Assembly: GCA_009837885.1 (NCBI GenBank)
Contig: VXSP01000045.1
Span: 325,526 to 389,525, forward strand
Direction: 5' to 3'
Length of the DNA stretch: 64,000 bases
Source of the DNA: Holophagales bacterium
GTDB lineage: Bacteria; Acidobacteriota; Thermoanaerobaculia; Multivoradales; Multivoraceae
Shown: positions 8,026 through 64,000 of the stretch, one piece after another
How positions within the stretch are numbered: the stretch's first letter is position 1
How the letters are laid out: each line of letters starts with the position of its first letter
Notes under the pieces: model-generated
What the model was told of the DNA's origin: nothing
Database searches by the model: none
The model's input: only the letters and a program-made list of their open reading frames with translations
Made by a program: the position numbers and the translations under genes

Positions 8026-9282
8026 ATGGCTGAACGACTTCCCTGCGGCTGTTCGCGGCGCGACTTCCTGCACCGTGGCCTCCTTGGACTTGGCGTCGCC
8101 GCCGGTCTTCCGGCGGTTCTCGGACGTACGTCCGCGGCGCTCGCGCTCGAGGAACTGCGGTCCGGGATCTCGGACGCGTCGGGGCGCATCCTGGTCGTGG
8201 TCGAGCTCTCTGGCGGCAACGACGGGCTGAACACCGTCATCCCGTTCCGCAACGACGAGTACTACCGGGTGCGCCCGAACCTGGGCATCCGCCCGAAGCG
8301 GGCGATCGCCGTCACCGAGGAGGCCGGGTTCCACCCGTCGCTCGTCGGCATGGAGGGCCTCTACAAGGACGGGAACCTGGCGGTCGTCGAGGGCTGCGGC
8401 TACCCGAACCCGAGTCTGTCCCACTTCTCGTCGATGGGCTTCTGGCACACCGGCGTGCCGAACGGCGGCGAGGCGCTTGGCTGGCTGGGCCGTCTCGCGG
8501 ACGATCACGGCCCGGACGGCACGCCCAACTACATCGTCAACGTGGCCAGCTCGCAGTCCCTGGCGGTGCGCGCGGCCAGGCACTCGCCGCTGGTCTTCGA
8601 CGACCCGGGCCGCCTCCGGCGCCAGGGCACGCCGGGCGAGAAACAGGCGCTCGGCCAGTTCGGCACGGACGAGGCGAGCGGCAACGACGCCCTCGACTTC
8701 CTGCGCGGCACGGCCGCCAACGCCGCTTCCAGTGCGGCGCTCGTGCGCGACGCGTGGTCCGGCTACCGCACGCCAGTCGACTACGGCATCGGCGGCCTCG
8801 GCGCCGACCTGCGCAAGGTCGCGGCCTTGATCGAGGCCGAACTGCCCACGCGCATCTACTACGTCAGCTTCCGCGGCAACTCGTTCGACACCCACGTCCA
8901 CCAGGCCGACACCCACGCCCGGCTGCTGATGTACATGTCCGACGCGGTCGCCGGCTTCCTGCGCGACGTCGACCGGATCGGCCGCGCCGACGATGTGGCG
9001 GTGCTGATGTTCACCGAGTTCGGCCGGCGGGTGGAGGAGAACGCGAGCCTCGGCACTGATCACGGCACCGCGGGCCCGATGTTCGTCGCCGGCAAAGGCG
9101 TCGCCGGCGGCTTCTACGGCGACACGCCGAGCCTCACCGACCTCGACGACGGCAACCTGAAGATGACGACCGACTTCCGGCGCGTCTACGCGTCGATGAT
9201 CGAGGGCTGGATGGGAATGGACGACGCCTCCGCGGTCCTCAAGGGCGAGTTCCCGGCGCTGCCGGTGTTCGGCGCGACGTAG
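8026..9282 (+). CDS. DUF1501 family protein, Tat-secreted
   Basis: Twin-arginine motif SRRDFLH. DUF1501 blocks (VVVELSGGNDGLNT..., FTEFGRR..EN...GTDHG). RBS gaggag upstream. Confidence 0.85.
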   Translation: MAERLPCGCSRRDFLHRGLLGLGVAAGLPAVLGRTSAALALEELRSGISDASGRILVVVELSGGNDGLNTVIPFRNDEYYRVRPNLGIRPKRAIAVTEEAGFHPSLVGMEGLYKDGNLAVVEGCGYPNPSLSHFSSMGFWHTGVPNGGEALGWLGRLADDHGPDGTPNYIVNVASSQSLAVRAARHSPLVFDDPGRLRRQGTPGEKQALGQFGTDEASGNDALDFLRGTAANAASSAALVRDAWSGYRTPVDYGIGGLGADLRKVAALIEAELPTRIYYVSFRGNSFDTHVHQADTHARLLMYMSDAVAGFLRDVDRIGRADDVAVLMFTEFGRRVEENASLGTDHGTAGPMFVAGKGVAGGFYGDTPSLTDLDDGNLKMTTDFRRVYASMIEGWMGMDDASAVLKGEFPALPVFGAT

Positions 9283-9401
9283 GCTTCGGGCTGGCGTTGG
9301 TTGGTGCCGAGATCGCGGCCTGGGAGCGTTCCCTTTCGGCAGTCGACTTCGTTCTCGGTTGACACCGGGAGTCGTCTGTGGTCGGATCCGACATGCGAAA
9401 A

Positions 9402-9421
9402 GACCCGCCGAGAGGCGGGTC
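9402..9421 (-). terminator. Intrinsic-terminator-like hairpin on the minus strand (GACCCGCC-tctc-GGCGGGTC followed by TTTTCG)
   Basis: Perfect 8-bp GC-rich stem with a 4-nt loop. The U-tract is present only when read on the minus strand. It lies upstream of the NYN gene start. Confidence 0.4.
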
Positions 9422-9526
9422 GCAGATAGCCATCCGGCCCGAAGCGCTAAGCAACTACAATGGGCGGCTGGCTTTTCATGGGGGCTCCCTCGGGAGCCCC
9501 TCGTTAGTTTGCGGCGGAGAGGGTCG

Positions 9527-10117
9527 ATGGACTACGTGGCGGTCTTCGTGGATGCTGGCTACCTGTTCGCCCAGGGCTCGCAGGTCCTTACCGGCACGAA
9601 GCTCCAACGTGGCGAGATGCGGCTCAACGTGGACGGCGCGGTGCGGGCGCTGACAGACCTCGCCGTTCGGGCTTCTCGCGAACTTCGGCTCCTCAGGATC
9701 TACTGGTACGACGGCACCTCGGGGGAGCCATCTCACCAGCACCGCACCCTCGCCCGACACGCTCACATCAAGGTGAGACTCGGCATCGTGAACAGGCAGG
9801 GCCAGCAGAAGGGCGTGGACTCACTCTTGGTGACGGACATGATCACGCTGGCACGGAACCGGGCGATGGCAGAGTGCGTTCTGCTCTCCGGTGACGAGGA
9901 CGCGACCAGGTTCAGGACTTCGAGGCGCTCGGCATCGAAGAACAGGTTCTCGTACACGGAAACCAAGCCAGCCGCAACGACCCACTCGTCCTCAAGCGCC
10001 TGGAGCACCTCGCTTCGTTTCGTCAGGCGGTCGGCAGCCTCCTTGACCTCCTCCAGGAGCCCTTCCTCCAGGGTCTCGGTCTCCGGCGACGGGCCGTGGT
10101 CCGTCTCAGTCATTTAG
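9527..10117 (+). CDS. NYN-domain (LabA-like, PIN-like fold) protein; C-terminal about 70 aa atypical
   Basis: NYN-like motifs: MDYVAVFVDAGYL..., KGVDSLLVTDM, LLSGDEDA. After SGDED the frame turns S/R-rich and low-complexity with reduced GC3. The GGAG RBS and a hairpin lie just upstream. Confidence 0.55.
   Translation: MDYVAVFVDAGYLFAQGSQVLTGTKLQRGEMRLNVDGAVRALTDLAVRASRELRLLRIYWYDGTSGEPSHQHRTLARHAHIKVRLGIVNRQGQQKGVDSLLVTDMITLARNRAMAECVLLSGDEDATRFRTSRRSASKNRFSYTETKPAATTHSSSSAWSTSLRFVRRSAASLTSSRSPSSRVSVSGDGPWSVSVI
9763..10113 (-). CDS. Small acidic hypothetical ORF convergent with, and antisense to, the NYN gene 3' region
   Basis: ATG at 10113. The first about 70 codons have GC-rich third positions and a protein-like acidic composition (MTETDHGPSPETETLEEGLLEEVKEAADRLTK...). 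Codon quality drops towards the 3' end, so the true stop is uncertain. Confidence 0.25.
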   Translation of the reverse strand: MTETDHGPSPETETLEEGLLEEVKEAADRLTKRSEVLQALEDEWVVAAGLVSVYENLFFDAERLEVLNLVASSSPESRTHSAIARFRASVIMSVTKSESTPFCWPCLFTMPSLTLM

Positions 10118-10176
10118 CGGCAGAGAGCCTACCCTTCGAGGGTGCTCGCCCTGGCAGGTCGGACAGCTCTCGCGGC

Positions 10177-10425
10177 TTACTGCCGAAGTTGGGGCAGTGA
10201 GCCTTCGGCGCAGGCCTCGATCTGGAAGCGTCGGATCAACGCCTTGACGAAACGGCGCTGGACTTCACCGCGGCCCGACCGCTGCCGGCTGTGCTGGCCG
10301 CTCGGAAGAAAGGCGCTGCTGGCGTCGTAGGTGACGATCCAGTTGTGTTGACCGCGTTTGACGGTGTAACCGGGAGCGCAGACGTCCAGCATGGCGAAGA
10401 CGCTCCGAAGCTGAATCTGCGCCAC
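10177..10425 (-). CDS. hicA: HicA-family toxin (YcfA-like)
   Basis: G-x-H...FLPSGQH...GRGEVQRRFVKALI aligns with the HicA pattern (GSHxxx...PxH...KGTLxxILKQ). It sits 3 nt downstream of the HicB-like gene. Confidence 0.6.
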   Translation of the reverse strand: MAQIQLRSVFAMLDVCAPGYTVKRGQHNWIVTYDASSAFLPSGQHSRQRSGRGEVQRRFVKALIRRFQIEACAEGSLPQLRQ

Positions 10426-10428
10426 GAA

Positions 10429-10917
10429 TCAGGCGGCTTCGGGCAGTCCGGCGAGGACCAGTTCGGATGGCTTGGGGTTGTTGGCGGGTCCGGTCTCGAC
10501 GAACAACGTGACGCTATGGCGAAGGGCGGGATTCGGTCGCACCGGGAGTTCGGACTGGACCTGGCCGGCTGCGACCTTCTCTCGCGCCGCGTCGAACGCG
10601 TGAGCGGCCCATGCGTCCGTGTCCTTGAAGAACCTGGAGACCTTCCGCTCGAACACGTCGAAGTCGGGCGCGTCCGCCGCGATGTCGTACAGCGCGAGTT
10701 CCGTGTTCGCCTTCAGGTCGAGGTAGGCCTCGATCAGGGTGTCGCCCACGCCGGCGACGCCGCCCGGCTTCAGGCCGTGCGCGAGGAAGCCGTCCTCCTC
10801 TTCGGTGACCACGGCGCCCCCACGAAACTCGACTCCGGCGGCGAAGCCCGGGCCTTGTACGGGGATCTGCAATCGGAACACGATCGGGTAGACCGTGTCC
10901 GGCATGGGATCGATCAT
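10429..10917 (-). CDS. hicB: HicB-family antitoxin (N-terminal HicB/UPF0150 domain)
   Basis: N-terminal motif VTEEEDGFLAHGLKPGGVAGVGDTLIEAYLDLKANTELAL matches the HicB fold signature (eeDG.y.a..p.lpG....G.T.eEa). Confidence 0.6.
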   Translation of the reverse strand: MIDPMPDTVYPIVFRLQIPVQGPGFAAGVEFRGGAVVTEEEDGFLAHGLKPGGVAGVGDTLIEAYLDLKANTELALYDIAADAPDFDVFERKVSRFFKDTDAWAAHAFDAAREKVAAGQVQSELPVRPNPALRHSVTLFVETGPANNPKPSELVLAGLPEAA

Positions 10918-11081
10918 GTCGGTCTCCCTCTTCGACGTGGGAGGCGGGAAGGTTTGGATCAGCGGCTTGACCGGCCGGCAGCCGGGTGCTGGAAGGCGAT
11001 GAGTATACCGAGGAGTCCGAGCGGGATCACCGCTCCCGGCGCCAGGGTCGGCATGGCGCCTCCCACGTTGGCGGCTTTCGA

Positions 11082-13229
11082 CTACGGGGCCGCCGCGGCC
11101 TGCTCGTCCGCGAGCATGTTGCGGCGGTGGAGGACGTAGGCCTTGAGCAGGGCGACATCGTCGCGGTCGAGGACGGGGTCGAAGCTGGGCATGCCGACAT
11201 CGACGAGTGCGCCTTCAAGCAGCGCTGCTTCGTAGGAGTCGAAGACGCGCTGTGACGATTGCCGCAGGTCGGGCGTGACGCCGCCGGAGACCGCGCCGTA
11301 GCCGTGGCAGACGAGGCAGTACTGGTTGAACAGCCGGCGCCCGGCATCGATGTCCTCCGCCTCTGCGCCATGGTCCACGCGGGTGACCCGGATCTCGCGG
11401 CGCTCCTGCCGCTCGATCGGCCGGCCGGTGGCGCCGAGGGCGTAGACGACGATCCGGCCTTCGGACTCGACTGCCTGCCGGGCGGAGCGGCTGCCGACGA
11501 TGCCGAAGGCGCCGCCCCAGCCGGACATGACGGCGATGTGCTGGGTGCCGCCGGACTCGAAGGTGATCGGCGGCGCGATGACGCCGCTGCCGGTGTAGCT
11601 CTCCCAGAGCTTCTCGCCGTCATCGGCTCGATACGCGGTCAACTGGCCGAAAGGCGTACCCTGAAAGACGAGGTTGCCGGCCGTGGCAAGCACGCCGCCC
11701 GACCAGGGCATCGTGTACTGCGCCCGCCAGGCCTCCCGCTGGGCGACGGGATCCCAGGCCAGCAGGTGGCCCGAGAGCAGGGCCGGCGGCGCGTCCTCGG
11801 CCAGCATCTGGCCCGAGAGGCCGGTGGCGTCGACGATTGCCTGGGGGATGTCCTCGGGAGCCGCGGCGCGGACACCCAGGTTCCATTGTCCGGGGGTGTA
11901 CTGGTAGTTCGGGTCCGGAACGTAGAAGTTCCCCATCTCCATCGCCGGGATGTAGACGAGGCCGGTCTTCGGACTGAACGCCATCGGATGCCAGTTGTGG
12001 CCGCCGAGTGGGCCCGGCGAGACGTTCACGGTCTGGTCGGTGTAGCGCGCCCCGGCGAGTTCGACGGGCCGGCCGCTGGCCAGATCGACATGGCTGGCCC
12101 AGGTGACGGTGACGAACTCCTCGGCCGAGATCAGTTCGCCGGTGCGGCGGTCGAGGACGTAGAAGAAGCCGTTCTTCGGCGCCTGCATCAGGACCTGGCG
12201 GACGCGGCCGCCGATCGGTAACTCGGCGAGCATGATCGGCTGGGTGGCGGTGTAGTCCCAGGTGTCGCCGGGCGTGGTCTGGTAGTGCCAGACGTACTCG
12301 CCGGTGTCGGGCTTAAGCGCCACGATGGACGACAGGAACAGGTTGTCGCCGCCGCCGGGGCTGCGCAGGTTGCGGTCCCAGGGCGCGCCGTTGCCGACGC
12401 CGATGTAGAGCAGATCGAGTTCCGGGTCGTAGACGATCGAGTCCCAGACCGTGCCGCCGCCGCCGCCGGTCCACCACTCGCCGGTCCAGGTCTCGGCGGC
12501 CATCCGCATCGCCTCGTTCTCGAAGCCGTCGGCCGGGTCCCCCGGCACGGTGTAGAAGCGCCAGGCTCGCTCGCCGGTTTCCGCGTCGTAGGCGTCGACG
12601 TAGCCGCGCACGCCGTACTCGGCGCCGCTGTTGCCGATGATCACCTTGCCCTTGGCGATCCGGGGCGCGCCGGTGATCGTGTACATCGAGTCCTCGGGCA
12701 CGGTCATCGTCGACCAGGCGAGTTCTCCGGTCTCGGCGTCGATGGCGATCAGCCGTCCGTCGAGCGTGGCGGAGATCACCTTGCCGCGGTAGAGGGCGGC
12801 GCCGCGGTTCACCGCGTCGCAGCAGGTCTTGTTCGCGATCGAACGCGGAACCTCCGGGTCGTAGGTCCACAGCGGTTCGCCAGTCACCGCGTCGAGGGCG
12901 TAGATGACGTTCCAGGCGCCGGTCGCGTACATCACGCCGTCGACGATCAGGGGCGTGGCCTCGAGACCCCGCTTCGTGTTCGTCTCCTGGACCCAGGCGA
13001 TGCCGAGCTGATCCACGTTGCCATCGTTGATCTGGTCCAGCACGCTGTAGCGCTGCTCCTTGTAGGTGCCGCCGTAGGTCAGCCAGTCGGCGGTGCGGCC
13101 GGCGGCGCCGACCAGCGCGGCGTCGTCGACTCCGTATGCGGCCTCGGCCCGCCGCGGCGGCGGTTGGGAGGCCGCGGCAGTGGCCAGCAGGAGCGCCACG
13201 AGCGTGGCGATCGGAGTGTGGATCTTCAT
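11082..13229 (-). CDS. PQQ-dependent quinohemoprotein alcohol dehydrogenase (type II ADH: PQQ propeller + C-terminal cytochrome c)
   Basis: - ATG at 13229 with a GAGGAA RBS, followed by a signal peptide.
- PQQ-ADH blocks including the vicinal CC pair (ANKTCCDAVNRG).
- C-terminal CxxCH (CLVCHGYG).
- Its start overlaps the stop of the upstream gene as ATGA.
- The 1062-aa track ORF is a spurious N-terminal extension. Confidence 0.85.
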   Translation of the reverse strand: MKIHTPIATLVALLLATAAASQPPPRRAEAAYGVDDAALVGAAGRTADWLTYGGTYKEQRYSVLDQINDGNVDQLGIAWVQETNTKRGLEATPLIVDGVMYATGAWNVIYALDAVTGEPLWTYDPEVPRSIANKTCCDAVNRGAALYRGKVISATLDGRLIAIDAETGELAWSTMTVPEDSMYTITGAPRIAKGKVIIGNSGAEYGVRGYVDAYDAETGERAWRFYTVPGDPADGFENEAMRMAAETWTGEWWTGGGGGTVWDSIVYDPELDLLYIGVGNGAPWDRNLRSPGGGDNLFLSSIVALKPDTGEYVWHYQTTPGDTWDYTATQPIMLAELPIGGRVRQVLMQAPKNGFFYVLDRRTGELISAEEFVTVTWASHVDLASGRPVELAGARYTDQTVNVSPGPLGGHNWHPMAFSPKTGLVYIPAMEMGNFYVPDPNYQYTPGQWNLGVRAAAPEDIPQAIVDATGLSGQMLAEDAPPALLSGHLLAWDPVAQREAWRAQYTMPWSGGVLATAGNLVFQGTPFGQLTAYRADDGEKLWESYTGSGVIAPPITFESGGTQHIAVMSGWGGAFGIVGSRSARQAVESEGRIVVYALGATGRPIERQERREIRVTRVDHGAEAEDIDAGRRLFNQYCLVCHGYGAVSGGVTPDLRQSSQRVFDSYEAALLEGALVDVGMPSFDPVLDRDDVALLKAYVLHRRNMLADEQAAAAP

Positions 13230-61970: not shown

Positions 61971-62201
61971 GGGGCCGGCAGTGTACCGCCGGAAGCTTCG
62001 GCTGCACCCGCCCGTTCCGGGCCTCAGGGGAGAGGGTCCCAGCGGGCTGGGCGGCGTAGACGTGCGTGCAGGCCCAACAGTGCATCGTCCTGGAGCCTTT
62101 GGCGGCGCAGTCTTGGCGGGTTCTGGTCCTTGTCGACCGTCTAGCCACCGGGAACTCATGCACCGACCTTGTGTTCTAACAGAATACTGTAAATTTAGTG
62201 A

Positions 62202-63260
62202 GTGCTGCTCCTGAGCCAGAGACCCTTGCGAGACAGAGATGGCGATCGGGCGCTCTTCACGGGTCGAGAGCCTGAGCTCGATCGCCTACTGCGAGCGTCC
62301 CGAGTTGGATTCAACGCCATCGTCTTGGGTGATCGAGGTGCAGGTACTAGCTCGTTGCTGGCTCGACACGCTTCCCACCTCGAAGGCCGGGGCGGTCGAG
62401 TGTGCCTCGTGACGGGAACCGCGGTCGACTCGATGCGTGGGCTCGCGGAAGCGATCCGACTCGCTGCCGAGGGAAGGCGGACTGTCGGCCGCGTTCCACC
62501 GGCTCAGGAACGGGGAGAGGACGAGCAGTCGGTACTCGGCAGGTTGATCCACGGTGACCCGCAGTCCTTGGGCCGGCTGCGTGACGTGTGCTTCGAGTTG
62601 GAGGAGTCCAACAACAGTGGGCGGCTGACCGTCATTCTCGACAATGTGCTGCGGCCAGAGATGGTCCACGGGCTCTTCGGCCGGTGCCGGGACGAAGTCT
62701 GGGAGTTACCAACGCGATGGGTGATTGCGGGGCGAGCAGATCGGCGCAGCCAGTATCTGAAGCCGCCGGCCGACTCCTTCTTCGACACTGAGGTGTACGT
62801 CGGAGCTCTTGAACCGGGAGTAGCGCGAGAACTGGTCCTTGCGCGCCTGAAGTCAGCCTTGCCCGAAGAGCGTGTCGACGCGGAACGAATCCGGCGCCGG
62901 CTTGACCAGATCGTGGAGCGCGGCGCGGGGAATCCCCGGCGGCTCTTGTCAGCGGCCAGGGACGTGCTCCTTAGTACCCAGGAGGAAGCGGAGAGCGGCG
63001 ACTCTGCCCTCGCCGCCGCTGCGTCGCTAGGCAAGACGGAGTTTGCTGCACTGCACTACTTGATGGACAGGGGCCCCGCGAGCGCGTCTGACTCGGAGTT
63101 CCAGGCAGACCTTGGAGTGACCCGTTCGCGTGCCACCCAGGTCCTGAAACGACTCGAAGACTCGAATCTCGTCACGGTCTTCGAGACGCGAACCGGCCGC
63201 GGCAGGCCGCGGAAGCTCTATCGTTCGATCGGCAGCGCGAGTGCGGAGGATCCTGCATGA
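62202..63260 (+). CDS. AAA-like ATPase-fold protein with degenerate Walker A (GDRGAGTSS) and C-terminal winged-helix domain
   Basis: - Arch-ATPase/AAA_16-like N-terminus (FTGREPELDRLL...IVLGDRGAGTSSLL).
- C-terminal MarR-like wHTH (LHYLMDRGP...LGVTRSRATQVLKRLEDSNLV).
- Codon usage is atypical for this window (frequent cga, ctt, ttg, act, agt).
- Preceded by an AT-rich spacer. Confidence 0.5.
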   Translation: MLLLSQRPLRDRDGDRALFTGREPELDRLLRASRVGFNAIVLGDRGAGTSSLLARHASHLEGRGGRVCLVTGTAVDSMRGLAEAIRLAAEGRRTVGRVPPAQERGEDEQSVLGRLIHGDPQSLGRLRDVCFELEESNNSGRLTVILDNVLRPEMVHGLFGRCRDEVWELPTRWVIAGRADRRSQYLKPPADSFFDTEVYVGALEPGVARELVLARLKSALPEERVDAERIRRRLDQIVERGAGNPRRLLSAARDVLLSTQEEAESGDSALAAAASLGKTEFAALHYLMDRGPASASDSEFQADLGVTRSRATQVLKRLEDSNLVTVFETRTGRGRPRKLYRSIGSASAEDPA

Positions 63261-63955
63261 GTCGCCACCTCCTCGTGTGGCTGCTCCAGACCCACGCCTT
63301 CGACGATGCTTCGCCACGCCACGACACCCGAGGCTACGAGCTGCCTACGGTACTCGGCGACCAGACTCTTCGGTACGTCCACGGCGGCATGGCTCCTCGT
63401 ACGCTGCCATGGCCGGGGCTGGAAGGAGTCGCTCCCGGCCAGAAGGGGCCAGCCGACTTTGGCCTGTCCTCGGCTTGGCCGCCGCAGCGACCGCTGCGTG
63501 CCGAGCGTCGACCAGTGACGACGACGCGGGAGGAGGTGATGGCGAACGTCTATGCGGCGTTCGGTTGGCGTGGAAGTCGCGAAGAGGGCGACGAACGGGT
63601 CGTTGTCCTGTCTGTGCGGACGCCGCCGGGCCTTCGGGACGTCCGGATCGACCACGGATTCGTGGAGCATGTGGCCAGGCACGCGAATCGCGGTGCCTTC
63701 GCGAACTACGTTTTGCCAACCCTGAAGGAACCCCATGAGGTCTGGTTGACGCACGTAGGTTCCAGTAGGGGTGGGGCCTTTCGGCATCACTTTCTTGCGG
63801 CTTTCGATGATGGAGTGACCGCGGTTGTCGTCGTGGAGCCCGGCGAGGCGCCGGTTGCTTGGAACTTCTTCCCCGTAAGGCGCCGGACGGATGTCCGGAA
63901 ACGGCGAAAGGGCATGCTCCTCTACTCTCGGCGCCAAGAAGGCGGGGAGGGCTGA
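63257..63955 (+). CDS. Hypothetical protein co-transcribed with the AAA-like/wHTH gene (alternative start ATG 63539 with a strong GGAGGAGG RBS)
   Basis: ATGA overlap with the upstream stop. The C-terminal 138 aa (MANVYAAFGWRG...HVARHANRGAFANYVLP...RHHFLAAF) has coding-like composition, but no family was recognised. Confidence 0.4.
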   Translation: MSRHLLVWLLQTHAFDDASPRHDTRGYELPTVLGDQTLRYVHGGMAPRTLPWPGLEGVAPGQKGPADFGLSSAWPPQRPLRAERRPVTTTREEVMANVYAAFGWRGSREEGDERVVVLSVRTPPGLRDVRIDHGFVEHVARHANRGAFANYVLPTLKEPHEVWLTHVGSSRGGAFRHHFLAAFDDGVTAVVVVEPGEAPVAWNFFPVRRRTDVRKRRKGMLLYSRRQEGGEG

Positions 63956-64000
63956 CGGGCGCGCGTCGCGGGTTAGGAGAGGCTGGAGCCTGCCGCCGCC

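Follow-up and report, generated by a model that had tools for sequence, protein, structure and literature searches.

Four described systems come closest to a pair of overlapping genes, here called g1 and g2, near the end of a 64,000-nucleotide (nt) stretch of DNA from a Holophagales bacterium of the Acidobacteriota (contig VXSP01000045.1, positions 325,526 to 389,525; the whole stretch is referred to as the window). Archaeal Orc1/Cdc6 proteins share with g1 a three-part architecture, a sensor-2-like PR motif and a palindromic site by the gene. However, g1 is without the Walker A lysine and the Walker B catalytic Glu, stays below every curated family cut-off, and is a bacterial protein coupled to a toxin-like gene with no evidence of an origin function. 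PARIS (AriA/AriB) is a two-gene defence system of an ATPase and a nuclease with ABC ATPase and TOPRIM folds. It resembles the logic proposed here, by which a P-loop scaffold or sensor would hold a nuclease inactive until a trigger arrives, whereas the folds are unrelated (Orc-like AAA+ and BECR in the present pair), the ATPase is degenerate and PADLOC gives no match.

Type II toxin–antitoxin (TA) modules with BECR-fold RNase toxins (RelE/colicin-like) likewise consist of an overlapping gene pair with an upstream (winged) helix-turn-helix protein and a palindrome over a promoter-like element. As in these, the downstream gene of the present pair is a predicted BECR-fold RNase, and the loci of the cassette are dispersed between housekeeping genes, with bona fide TA modules next to it on the Rhodococcus fascians plasmid pFiD188. 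In contrast, the 'antitoxin' would be an AAA+ protein of 352 amino acids (aa), the toxin a 232-aa chimera with a phage PBECR2 module and the ancestral partner an ATPase, and the two genes do not co-evolve. As in type II TA modules, g2 would inhibit growth and would be neutralised by direct binding of g1. The fourth group, the MuF/portal polymorphic toxins (PMC5576092; PMC5512222), includes fusion proteins with a C-terminal PBECR2 toxin module, and the last ~180 residues of g2 match this module at 57% identity. Iyer et al. 2017 (PMC5512222) describe PBECR domains from phage polyvalent and MuF proteins and predict them to be RNases of the BECR fold that need no metal and have their catalytic His in the N-terminal helix. 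An immunity open reading frame (ORF) normally follows the gene of a MuF toxin (Jamet et al. 2017, PMC5576092). The g2 protein differs in having no MuF or portal domain (no Phage_Mu_F or Portal_Mu match in Pfam) and no prophage context, its module has been fused to the start of a cellular ATPase-partner gene, and no small immunity ORF follows it, as the gap behind g2 (~130 nt here, 128–188 nt in the related loci L090 and L088) leaves no space for one.

The cassette family and its two proteins

Patterns taken from the g1 alignment led to relatives of the cassette in at least 201 species genomes, of which the best 80 were analysed, and a homologue search gave 65 g1 homologues besides these. The hosts are mostly Actinomycetota (Acidimicrobiia, Solirubrobacterales, Rhodococcus, Nakamurella), and others include metagenome-assembled genomes (MAGs) of Candidatus Multivorans (Acidobacteriota, Thermoanaerobaculia). 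A complete or almost complete P-loop ATPase of ~350 aa (ATPase2) comes after g1, in the same orientation, in 58 of 81 loci, and most of the other loci hold fragments. ATPase2 carries the motifs GxSGSGKSS and VLVFDDTD, matches AAA_16 (E 1.6e-8) and is a paralogue of g1 (hhalign 97.3%, E 2e-11). Of 75 loci, 50 have a 4-nt overlap (A/GTGA) of the two reading frames and nine a 1-nt overlap. No further conserved gene was found around the g1–partner pair. PADLOC (PADLOC-DB v2), NCBIfam and PHROGs returned no family for g1, g2 or ATPase2; PADLOC gave only Csa3 on the winged helix of g1 (E 0.009), P-loop-level matches of ATPase2 to mad3, PifA and mad8, and nothing for g2. By these searches, the cassette appears to stand outside every described defence or TA family tested.

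An initial annotation, made from the letters of the window and a list of its ORFs, had described two genes overlapping by ATGA, the first an ORC/archaeal-ATPase-like protein with a replaced Walker A lysine and a C-terminal winged helix, the second of no recognisable family. The two same-strand ORFs with their 4-nt overlap are as described (Table 1). The start of g1 is supported by the N-terminus MLxLSQRPL of the family, which aligns there, and by relatives with ATG at this position. Pfam matches remain below their cut-offs, both on g1 (AAA_16, 23.1 vs 32.6 bits; nSTAND1, 17.4 vs 27.1) and on its winged helix (MarR, 24.2 vs 24.6; TrmB, 22.0 vs 25.6), and the NCBIfam orc1/cdc6 model (TIGR02928) is not reached. 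A sequence search of solved structures yielded only P-loop or winged helix-turn-helix (wHTH) fragments for g1 and nothing for g2. An AlphaFold2 (AF2) model of g1 from 38 homologues had a mean confidence (pLDDT) of 86, and Foldseek placed it best with the archaeal Orc1/Cdc6 structures 2v1u, 1w5t, 2qby and 1fnn (probability 1.00, E 1e-7 to 3e-7), further with eukaryotic ORC/Cdc6 subunits and then with RuvB; sequence identity to the Orc1/Cdc6 structures is just 12–20%. As modelled, g1 has the Orc1/Cdc6 fold, an AAA+ core with a lid and a C-terminal winged helix, and the earlier description of this protein holds at the level of structure.

Walker B of g1 reads TVILDN, with no acidic residue after D, and a sensor-2-like GNPRRLL is present. 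Across the 81 loci, the position of the Walker A lysine is K in 45, R in 12 and other in 24 (three gaps; the rest non-basic, namely V, I, L, M, S or T). Walker B has the form hhhhD with a varying residue after it, and the sensor-2-like PR motif is nearly invariant. The ratio of nonsynonymous to synonymous substitution rates (dN/dS) of 0.17–0.30 for g1 indicates purifying selection.

A family was found for g2. PF18810 (PBECR2), a predicted RNase of phage MuF/portal origin, matches residues 127–223 (nt 63635–63925; E 6.1e-14, 52.7 bits vs a cut-off of 27.1) and is carried by 13 of 13 close homologues. A g2 profile search of 1.84 billion representative proteins gave 190 relatives, with homology beginning at residue ~50. 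The closest relative of the module, P0079 (Phage_Mu_F + PBECR2), is 57% identical in its C-terminus over g2 residues 51–223 (E 1e-62), and P0080 (Portal_Mu + PBECR2) is likewise similar. The family-wide residues H138, R145, E161, R176, R217 and G219 are all kept, His138 being present in 87% of 136 representatives.

The beginning of g2 is homologous to the N-terminus of ATPase2. Its peptide MSRHLLVWLLQTHAFDDASPRHDTRGYELPT corresponds to the ATPase2 N-terminal consensus MSRELLLRLRAAHAFDPTPRFDDLGVYHVPFDEL, which is the most conserved part of ATPase2. The g2 and ATPase2 families align by hhalign (79.6% probability, E 1.5e-5), and an ATPase2 N-terminal hidden Markov model matches g2 residues 1–23 with E 0.021 among 10,349 ORFs and the orthologue of locus L013 with E 2.9e-4. 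From this N-terminal homology together with the phage-like body, it follows that a phage toxin module has taken the place of the ATPase2 body in frame, while the translational coupling to g1 and the N-terminal peptide were preserved. Judged from its sequence, g2 is a chimera that begins with the ATPase2-derived N-terminus and 4-nt overlap and continues with a PBECR2 module akin to the toxin ends of phage MuF and portal proteins. The N-terminal peptide is proposed to be a docking peptide for g1. The fused form is found in a small clade of 13 clusters (one representative at 50% identity), and dN/dS is ~0.5 in the N-terminus and ~0.25 in the C-terminal module of g2, with 0.17–0.33 overall for g1 and g2, which places both genes under purifying selection. 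A protein identical to g2 is encoded on a 568-kb ENA scaffold (L001) and in the MAG GCA_009842435.1, annotated as hypothetical protein of a Holophagales bacterium.

A strong internal ribosome-binding site had also been ascribed to g2. The Shine-Dalgarno-like GGAGGAGG does exist as sequence ahead of the in-frame ATG of Met95. However, Met95 is present in only six of 12 aligned g2-family sequences, and a functional second start was rejected because it is not conserved among g2 orthologues. Most likely, the internal site is a by-product of Glu-Glu-Val codons.

Slot 2, the position after g1, is often lost while g1 persists. ATPase2 is frameshifted or truncated next to an intact g1 in L006 (7050–7890), L007 (7111–7545) and L009 (7114–7655), and also in L018, L023, L026, L029, L037 and L038. 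In an Acidimicrobiaceae MAG (L084, 6992–7666, + strand), the g1 homologue is followed not by ATPase2 but by an NYN-domain RNase (PF01936, E 1e-10) that is without the conserved N-terminal peptide; the effector may have been replaced here a second, independent time, or the RNase may be a mere neighbour. The nearest Portal_Mu–PBECR2 relative of g2 lies in an apparent degraded prophage of L092 with a truncated portal and a DUF1799 gene, and two ThsB-like TIR genes are found a few kb from it (these features are at L092 983–2180 and 5243–7512). A 70-aa ORF behind the Portal_Mu–PBECR2 gene was considered as an immunity candidate; it is of low complexity and has no homologue near the cassette.

The upstream palindrome and the history of the locus

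Ahead of g1 lies the AT-rich spacer ctaacagaatactgtaaatttag, which had been pointed out in the initial annotation and is unique in the window. This window version (CTAACAGAATACTGTAAATTTAG, 62176–62198), laid out as CTAAC-AGAA-TACTGTA-AAT-TTAG, is a degenerate copy of a palindrome conserved in the family. Relatives have a near-perfect palindrome of 29–31 nt at this place, such as CCTAACGAAACTTACTGTAAGTTTCGTTAGG in L027 or TTCACCAAAGTTAC-T-GTAAGTTTGGTGAA in the Multivorans relatives. The core TTACNGTAA is present in 47 of 91 loci, that of pFiD188 among them, in a single copy that stands 17–20 nt ahead of the start codon of g1, against a background of three matches in 890 kb. In the right arm, a TAnnnT hexamer ends 6–9 nt before the start codon, with a TTG-containing hexamer ~16–17 nt upstream. 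The window has a -35-like CTTGTG/TTGTGT and a -10-like TAAATT at 62190–62195 that ends 6 nt before the GTG. A strict sigma-70 consensus scan over 8600–12400 found, at its stringency, no promoter-like site. No Shine-Dalgarno sequence is evident before g1, and the arrangement suggests a leaderless or near-leaderless g1–g2 mRNA.

The palindrome core and the recognition helix of g1 change together in three clades: GTAGC-T-GCTAC occurs with SRQRAQQAL, TTCCGAA...TTCGGAA with TRERA(G/S)QV, and the majority have TRxRAxQVL. This covariation, a signal confounded by phylogeny, supports binding of the palindrome by g1. For the region as a whole, we infer a promoter role and binding by g1.

About a dozen related genomes have the cassette between the genes for a luciferase-like monooxygenase (LLM) and PSCyt. 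This syntenic locus holds the PBECR2 form in L012–L014, L088, L090 and L091, an intact ATPase2 in L008 and a fragmented one in L006, L007 and L009. The flanking proteins are 77–94% identical, whereas g1 is ~55% identical between sublineages, with synonymous divergence (dS) above 2 and thus saturated. In a neighbour-joining tree of g1, the two PBECR2-linked clades stand together beside the ATPase2-linked Multivorans clade, and all of them fall inside the Acidimicrobiia homologues. A history of one transfer from Actinomycetota and then one effector swap fits this tree. Between L088 (4024–5747) and L090 (7001–9096), g2 is near-identical (dN 0.03–0.06) with g1 only 55% identical, which means that g1 and g2 recombine independently and indicates a putative recombination breakpoint at or near the g1/g2 junction.

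Codon usage of the pair had been described as atypical, and this is clearly the case. GC content at third codon positions (GC3) is 0.719 in g1 and 0.724 in g2 compared with 0.883±0.052 in 29 long reference ORFs of the window (z -3.2 and -3.1). The codon adaptation index departs from the same reference (z -3.5 and -3.3), and the codons named in the annotation (CGA, CTT, TTG, AGT and ACT) are enriched 2.6–4.1-fold. The same low GC3 is found in the cassette of every relative (0.64–0.77 in L006–L014 and L087–L091, with flanks at 0.85–0.93), and the Acidimicrobiia homologues have 0.62–0.69. Horizontal acquisition, which the initial annotation had concluded from the codons, is thus supported by the foreign composition and by the nesting of g1 in Acidimicrobiia of similar GC3. 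It was, however, not recent, as the same locus is shared by about a dozen related genomes. Recent transfer as the cause of the codon bias was rejected because low GC3 is common to all syntenic relatives, and with g1 dS saturated, codons that have not ameliorated do not simply mark a recent transfer. Possible reasons for the persistent low GC3 are selection for poor codons or a continuing exchange pool.

Readings of the cassette

The anatomy of the pair is that of a conflict module, in line with the defence- or TA-like architecture that had been proposed from the window, with function deduced from sequence. The reading we favour, with confidence slightly short of even, is an autoregulated toxin/keeper module of TA or abortive-defence type, derived from the widespread cassette of an Orc-like AAA+–winged-helix protein and a paralogous AAA+ protein. 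Dimers of g1 would bind the palindrome by their winged helix and, as the palindrome overlaps the -10 region, repress the g1–g2 transcript, which is probably leaderless. Through the conserved N-terminal peptide, g1 would also hold g2 and keep the RNase inactive; the locus has no space for an immunity gene of its own. This variant probably does without ATP hydrolysis, since the ATPase partner is missing and g1 no longer has the Walker A lysine, and nucleotide binding would be at most a switch. Titration, degradation or triggering of g1, as might follow infection or loss of expression, would set g2 free to cut cellular RNA and arrest growth. A wider proposal, that at least 201 species genomes hold an undescribed family of autoregulated conflict modules in which exchangeable slot-2 effectors dock by a short N-terminal peptide onto an Orc-like keeper or sensor, and that g1 of the window, with ATP hydrolysis lost, is an Orc1/Cdc6-fold protein acting as nucleotide-independent toxin keeper and autorepressor, is tentative and stays somewhat doubtful.

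Several observations weigh against a toxin held by its keeper. The 352 aa of g1 far exceed the size of classical antitoxins, and the RNase activity of PBECR2 is itself a prediction (Iyer et al. 2017, PMC5512222). The lack of co-evolution between g1 and g2 seen in L088 and L090 argues against a tight antitoxin–toxin interface. In the g2 clade, E146, found in 80% of the family, is replaced by Gly, position 203, a possible C-terminal Thr/Ser active-site position, is Asn (T in 54% and N in 41% of the family), and the AF2 model of g2 from a 12-sequence alignment is unreliable (pLDDT 36). PADLOC, suggested in the initial annotation as a check for a defence system, found no significant match to any defence-system component. 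A census of 120 flanking proteins gave 128 mostly housekeeping Pfam families, integrases in three of 120 and no enrichment of defence islands or mobile elements; with no conserved or defence neighbours in this census, the cassette being part of a larger multi-gene system was rejected. The cassette is also scarce on mobile elements: among 72,556 plasmid records it is found only on pFiD188, and it is absent from the phage collection searched by tblastn, including with the Rhodococcus g1 homologue; g2 had no match there either.

A different mode of defence would have g1 act as a sensor of STAND/Avs or PARIS type, with a phage cue that releases or activates the slot-2 effector and leads to abortive infection. 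Weak nSTAND1 and AAA_16 matches of g1, a match of the Rhodococcus homologue to the STAND part of FxSxx_TPR, the exchangeable effector slot (ATPase2 or PBECR2, and the NYN RNase beside the g1 homologue of L084), the fast evolution of the cassette relative to its flanks, the frequent pseudogenisation of ATPase2 and the independent recombination of g1 and g2 all agree with such a sensor. However, g1 consists of AAA+, lid and winged helix only, with neither a sensor repeat of the STAND/Avs kind nor any extra domain, loss of the Walker A lysine makes an ATP-driven switch unlikely, and the missing defence-island association and PADLOC match speak against it as well, so that we consider this rather unlikely. 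An even less probable option is that g1 is only a transcriptional regulator and g2 a non-toxic RNA-binding or RNA-processing protein, or one whose toxicity is set by expression, with no keeper at the protein level. This option is favoured by the conserved operator over the promoter-like element, the absent co-evolution and the changes E146G and T203N of g2. Inactive PBECR domains have been noted (Iyer et al. 2017, PMC5512222), and an RNA-binding or RNA-processing role has been proposed for the inactive PBECR of Mu gp30. Yet g2 has kept H138, R145, E161, R176 and R217, and an ancestral N-terminal peptide with an exact overlap, both under purifying selection, is hard to explain without a link between the proteins.

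The Orc1/Cdc6 fold of g1, the two AAA+ paralogues, the linear plasmid pFiD188 that carries the cassette and the palindromic site adjoining the gene might also be taken for a DNA-transaction module, for instance one in which Orc-like paralogues initiate replication or serve in loading on a mobile element, with the RNase variant as a side-branch unrelated to conflict. We regard this as quite improbable, since most loci are chromosomal, among housekeeping genes and without mobile-element genes (one plasmid, no phage), the Walker A lysine is dispensable, being lost or R in about 36 of 81 loci, and an RNase in place of an ATPase is not expected of a replication machine. A last reading takes g2 for the decaying remnant of a prophage MuF/portal toxin left beside g1 by chance and without joint function, as the nearest relatives of the module are phage head-protein fusions, one of them in the degraded prophage of L092, and the slot after g2 is variable (IS21 copies, XRE pair or CBS protein). 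Conservation and selection largely refute such a remnant: the chimera is kept in at least nine genomes at one syntenic locus with dN/dS of ~0.25–0.33, it is fused in frame to the N-terminus of the partner with the ancestral 4-nt overlap, and no phage genes are adjacent. Its probability is accordingly minimal.

Genomic setting and meaning of the cassette

On the 5' side, the cassette is preceded by housekeeping genes for cytochrome oxidase, a GFO/IDH oxidoreductase, a glycosyltransferase, a methyltransferase and the LLM. The initial annotation had taken the pair for the edge of an island, cut by the window end and continuing beyond base 64,000. However, g2 is complete within the window, and ~130 nt behind it follows a convergent pair, a 326-aa familyless protein and its preceding XRE-type HTH gene, which is absent from the sister genomes and at this site specific to this genome. 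The pair is followed by housekeeping genes of normal codon usage (PSCyt/PSD1, DUF1501, an ammonium transporter and an amidohydrolase); in L090 and L088, the PSCyt gene begins 128–188 nt after g2. An island is therefore an overstatement for the atypical tract, a 1.8-kb cassette and a 1.5-kb lineage-specific insertion between conserved core genes. A search around the cassette for integration signatures, also recommended at the time, found neither a tRNA nor an integrase and turned up no convincing direct or inverted repeats on either side, and the extended contig has no phage genes adjacent to g1 and g2.

Table 1. Features of the cassette and contents of the slot behind it. Positions refer to the window unless a locus is named.
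Feature	Position	Strand	Remarks
Promoter/operator region	62168–62201	+	imperfect palindrome over promoter-like hexamers
g1	62202–63260	+	352 aa, GTG start
Walker A-like loop of g1	62328–62354 (residues 43–51)	+	GDRGAGTSS, T in place of K
wHTH of g1	63027–63230 (residues ~276–343)	+	H-H-H-strand-strand at 278–342 in AF2
g2	63257–63955	+	232 aa, TGA stop ends at 63955
N-terminal peptide of g2	63257–63361 (residues 1–~35)	+	MSRHLLVWLLQTHAFDDASPRHDTRGYELPT; homologous to ATPase2 N-terminus
PBECR2 module of g2	63407–63940 (residues 51–228)	+	predicted metal-independent BECR-fold endoRNase
Shine-Dalgarno-like GGAGGAGG, then ATG	63528–63541	+	in-frame ATG (Met95) at 63539
Slot g2–PSCyt, this genome	L001 10700–12313		XRE + 326-aa pair
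Slot g2–PSCyt	L014 7614–8549		311-aa protein with CBS-like tail
Slot g2–PSCyt	L012 8170–12062		IS21-type IstA/IstB copies
Slot g2–PSCyt	L013 7775–8287		deletion extending into DUF1501

The slot between g2 and PSCyt is a variation hotspot among the related genomes (Table 1). In this genome, the 326-aa protein (L001 10829–11809, - strand) lies about 85–1065 nt past the window end, and the XRE-type HTH gene ahead of it is at L001 11827–12195 (- strand). Searches of Pfam, PADLOC, NCBIfam and PHROGs found no family for the 326-aa protein. It has at least 7,524 homologue clusters (90% identity) and is 60–70% identical across phyla as distant as those of Aminicenantes, Gammaproteobacteria and Caldilineaceae, a conservation that is unusually strong for an unnamed protein. 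Two Acidimicrobiia loci also carry homologues of this protein (L018 1–366 and L020 1721–2626, both on the - strand), at a distance of 3.4–5.6 kb upstream of a g1 homologue. ATPase2 is absent or truncated in these two loci, which may be a coincidence or a loose association. Nested GC-rich inverted repeats in the gap where g2 and the 326-aa gene converge (L001 10703–10716/10798–10811 and 10738–10754/10790–10806, starting at window position 63959) could be a bidirectional terminator.

On the linear virulence plasmid pFiD188 (L086, NZ_CP015236.1 37795–42592), the pair (A3L23_RS24210/RS24215) is annotated as "ATPase AAA" and "ATP-binding protein" and directly follows a Phd/YefM–RelE/ParE module and a RES-family NAD+ phosphorylase with its upstream partner. 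Together, the three modules form a small addiction-module cluster.

The canonical pair is common in Actinomycetota, including pFiD188 of Rhodococcus fascians and Nakamurella lactea (DSM 19367, scaffold NZ_AUFT01000012), without an assigned function. The cassette appears, from the relationships of g1, to have moved from Actinomycetota into Acidobacteriota, and the names of several related MAGs (Spongiisocius, Poriferisodalis) suggest, by name only, an association with sponges. The replacement of the second ATPase by a predicted RNase toxin with the proposed docking end kept would, as guilt by substitution, link the cassette to conflict biology and mark slot 2 as an effector position. It is also an example of a phage MuF/portal toxin module captured by a cellular regulatory cassette. 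The TTACNGTAA-centred palindrome, with its fixed position and its covariation with the recognition helix, offers an experimental handle on the family. As read from these comparisons, g1–g2 is a lineage-specific effector-swap variant of a widespread Orc-like/ATPase pair with its own conserved putative operator.

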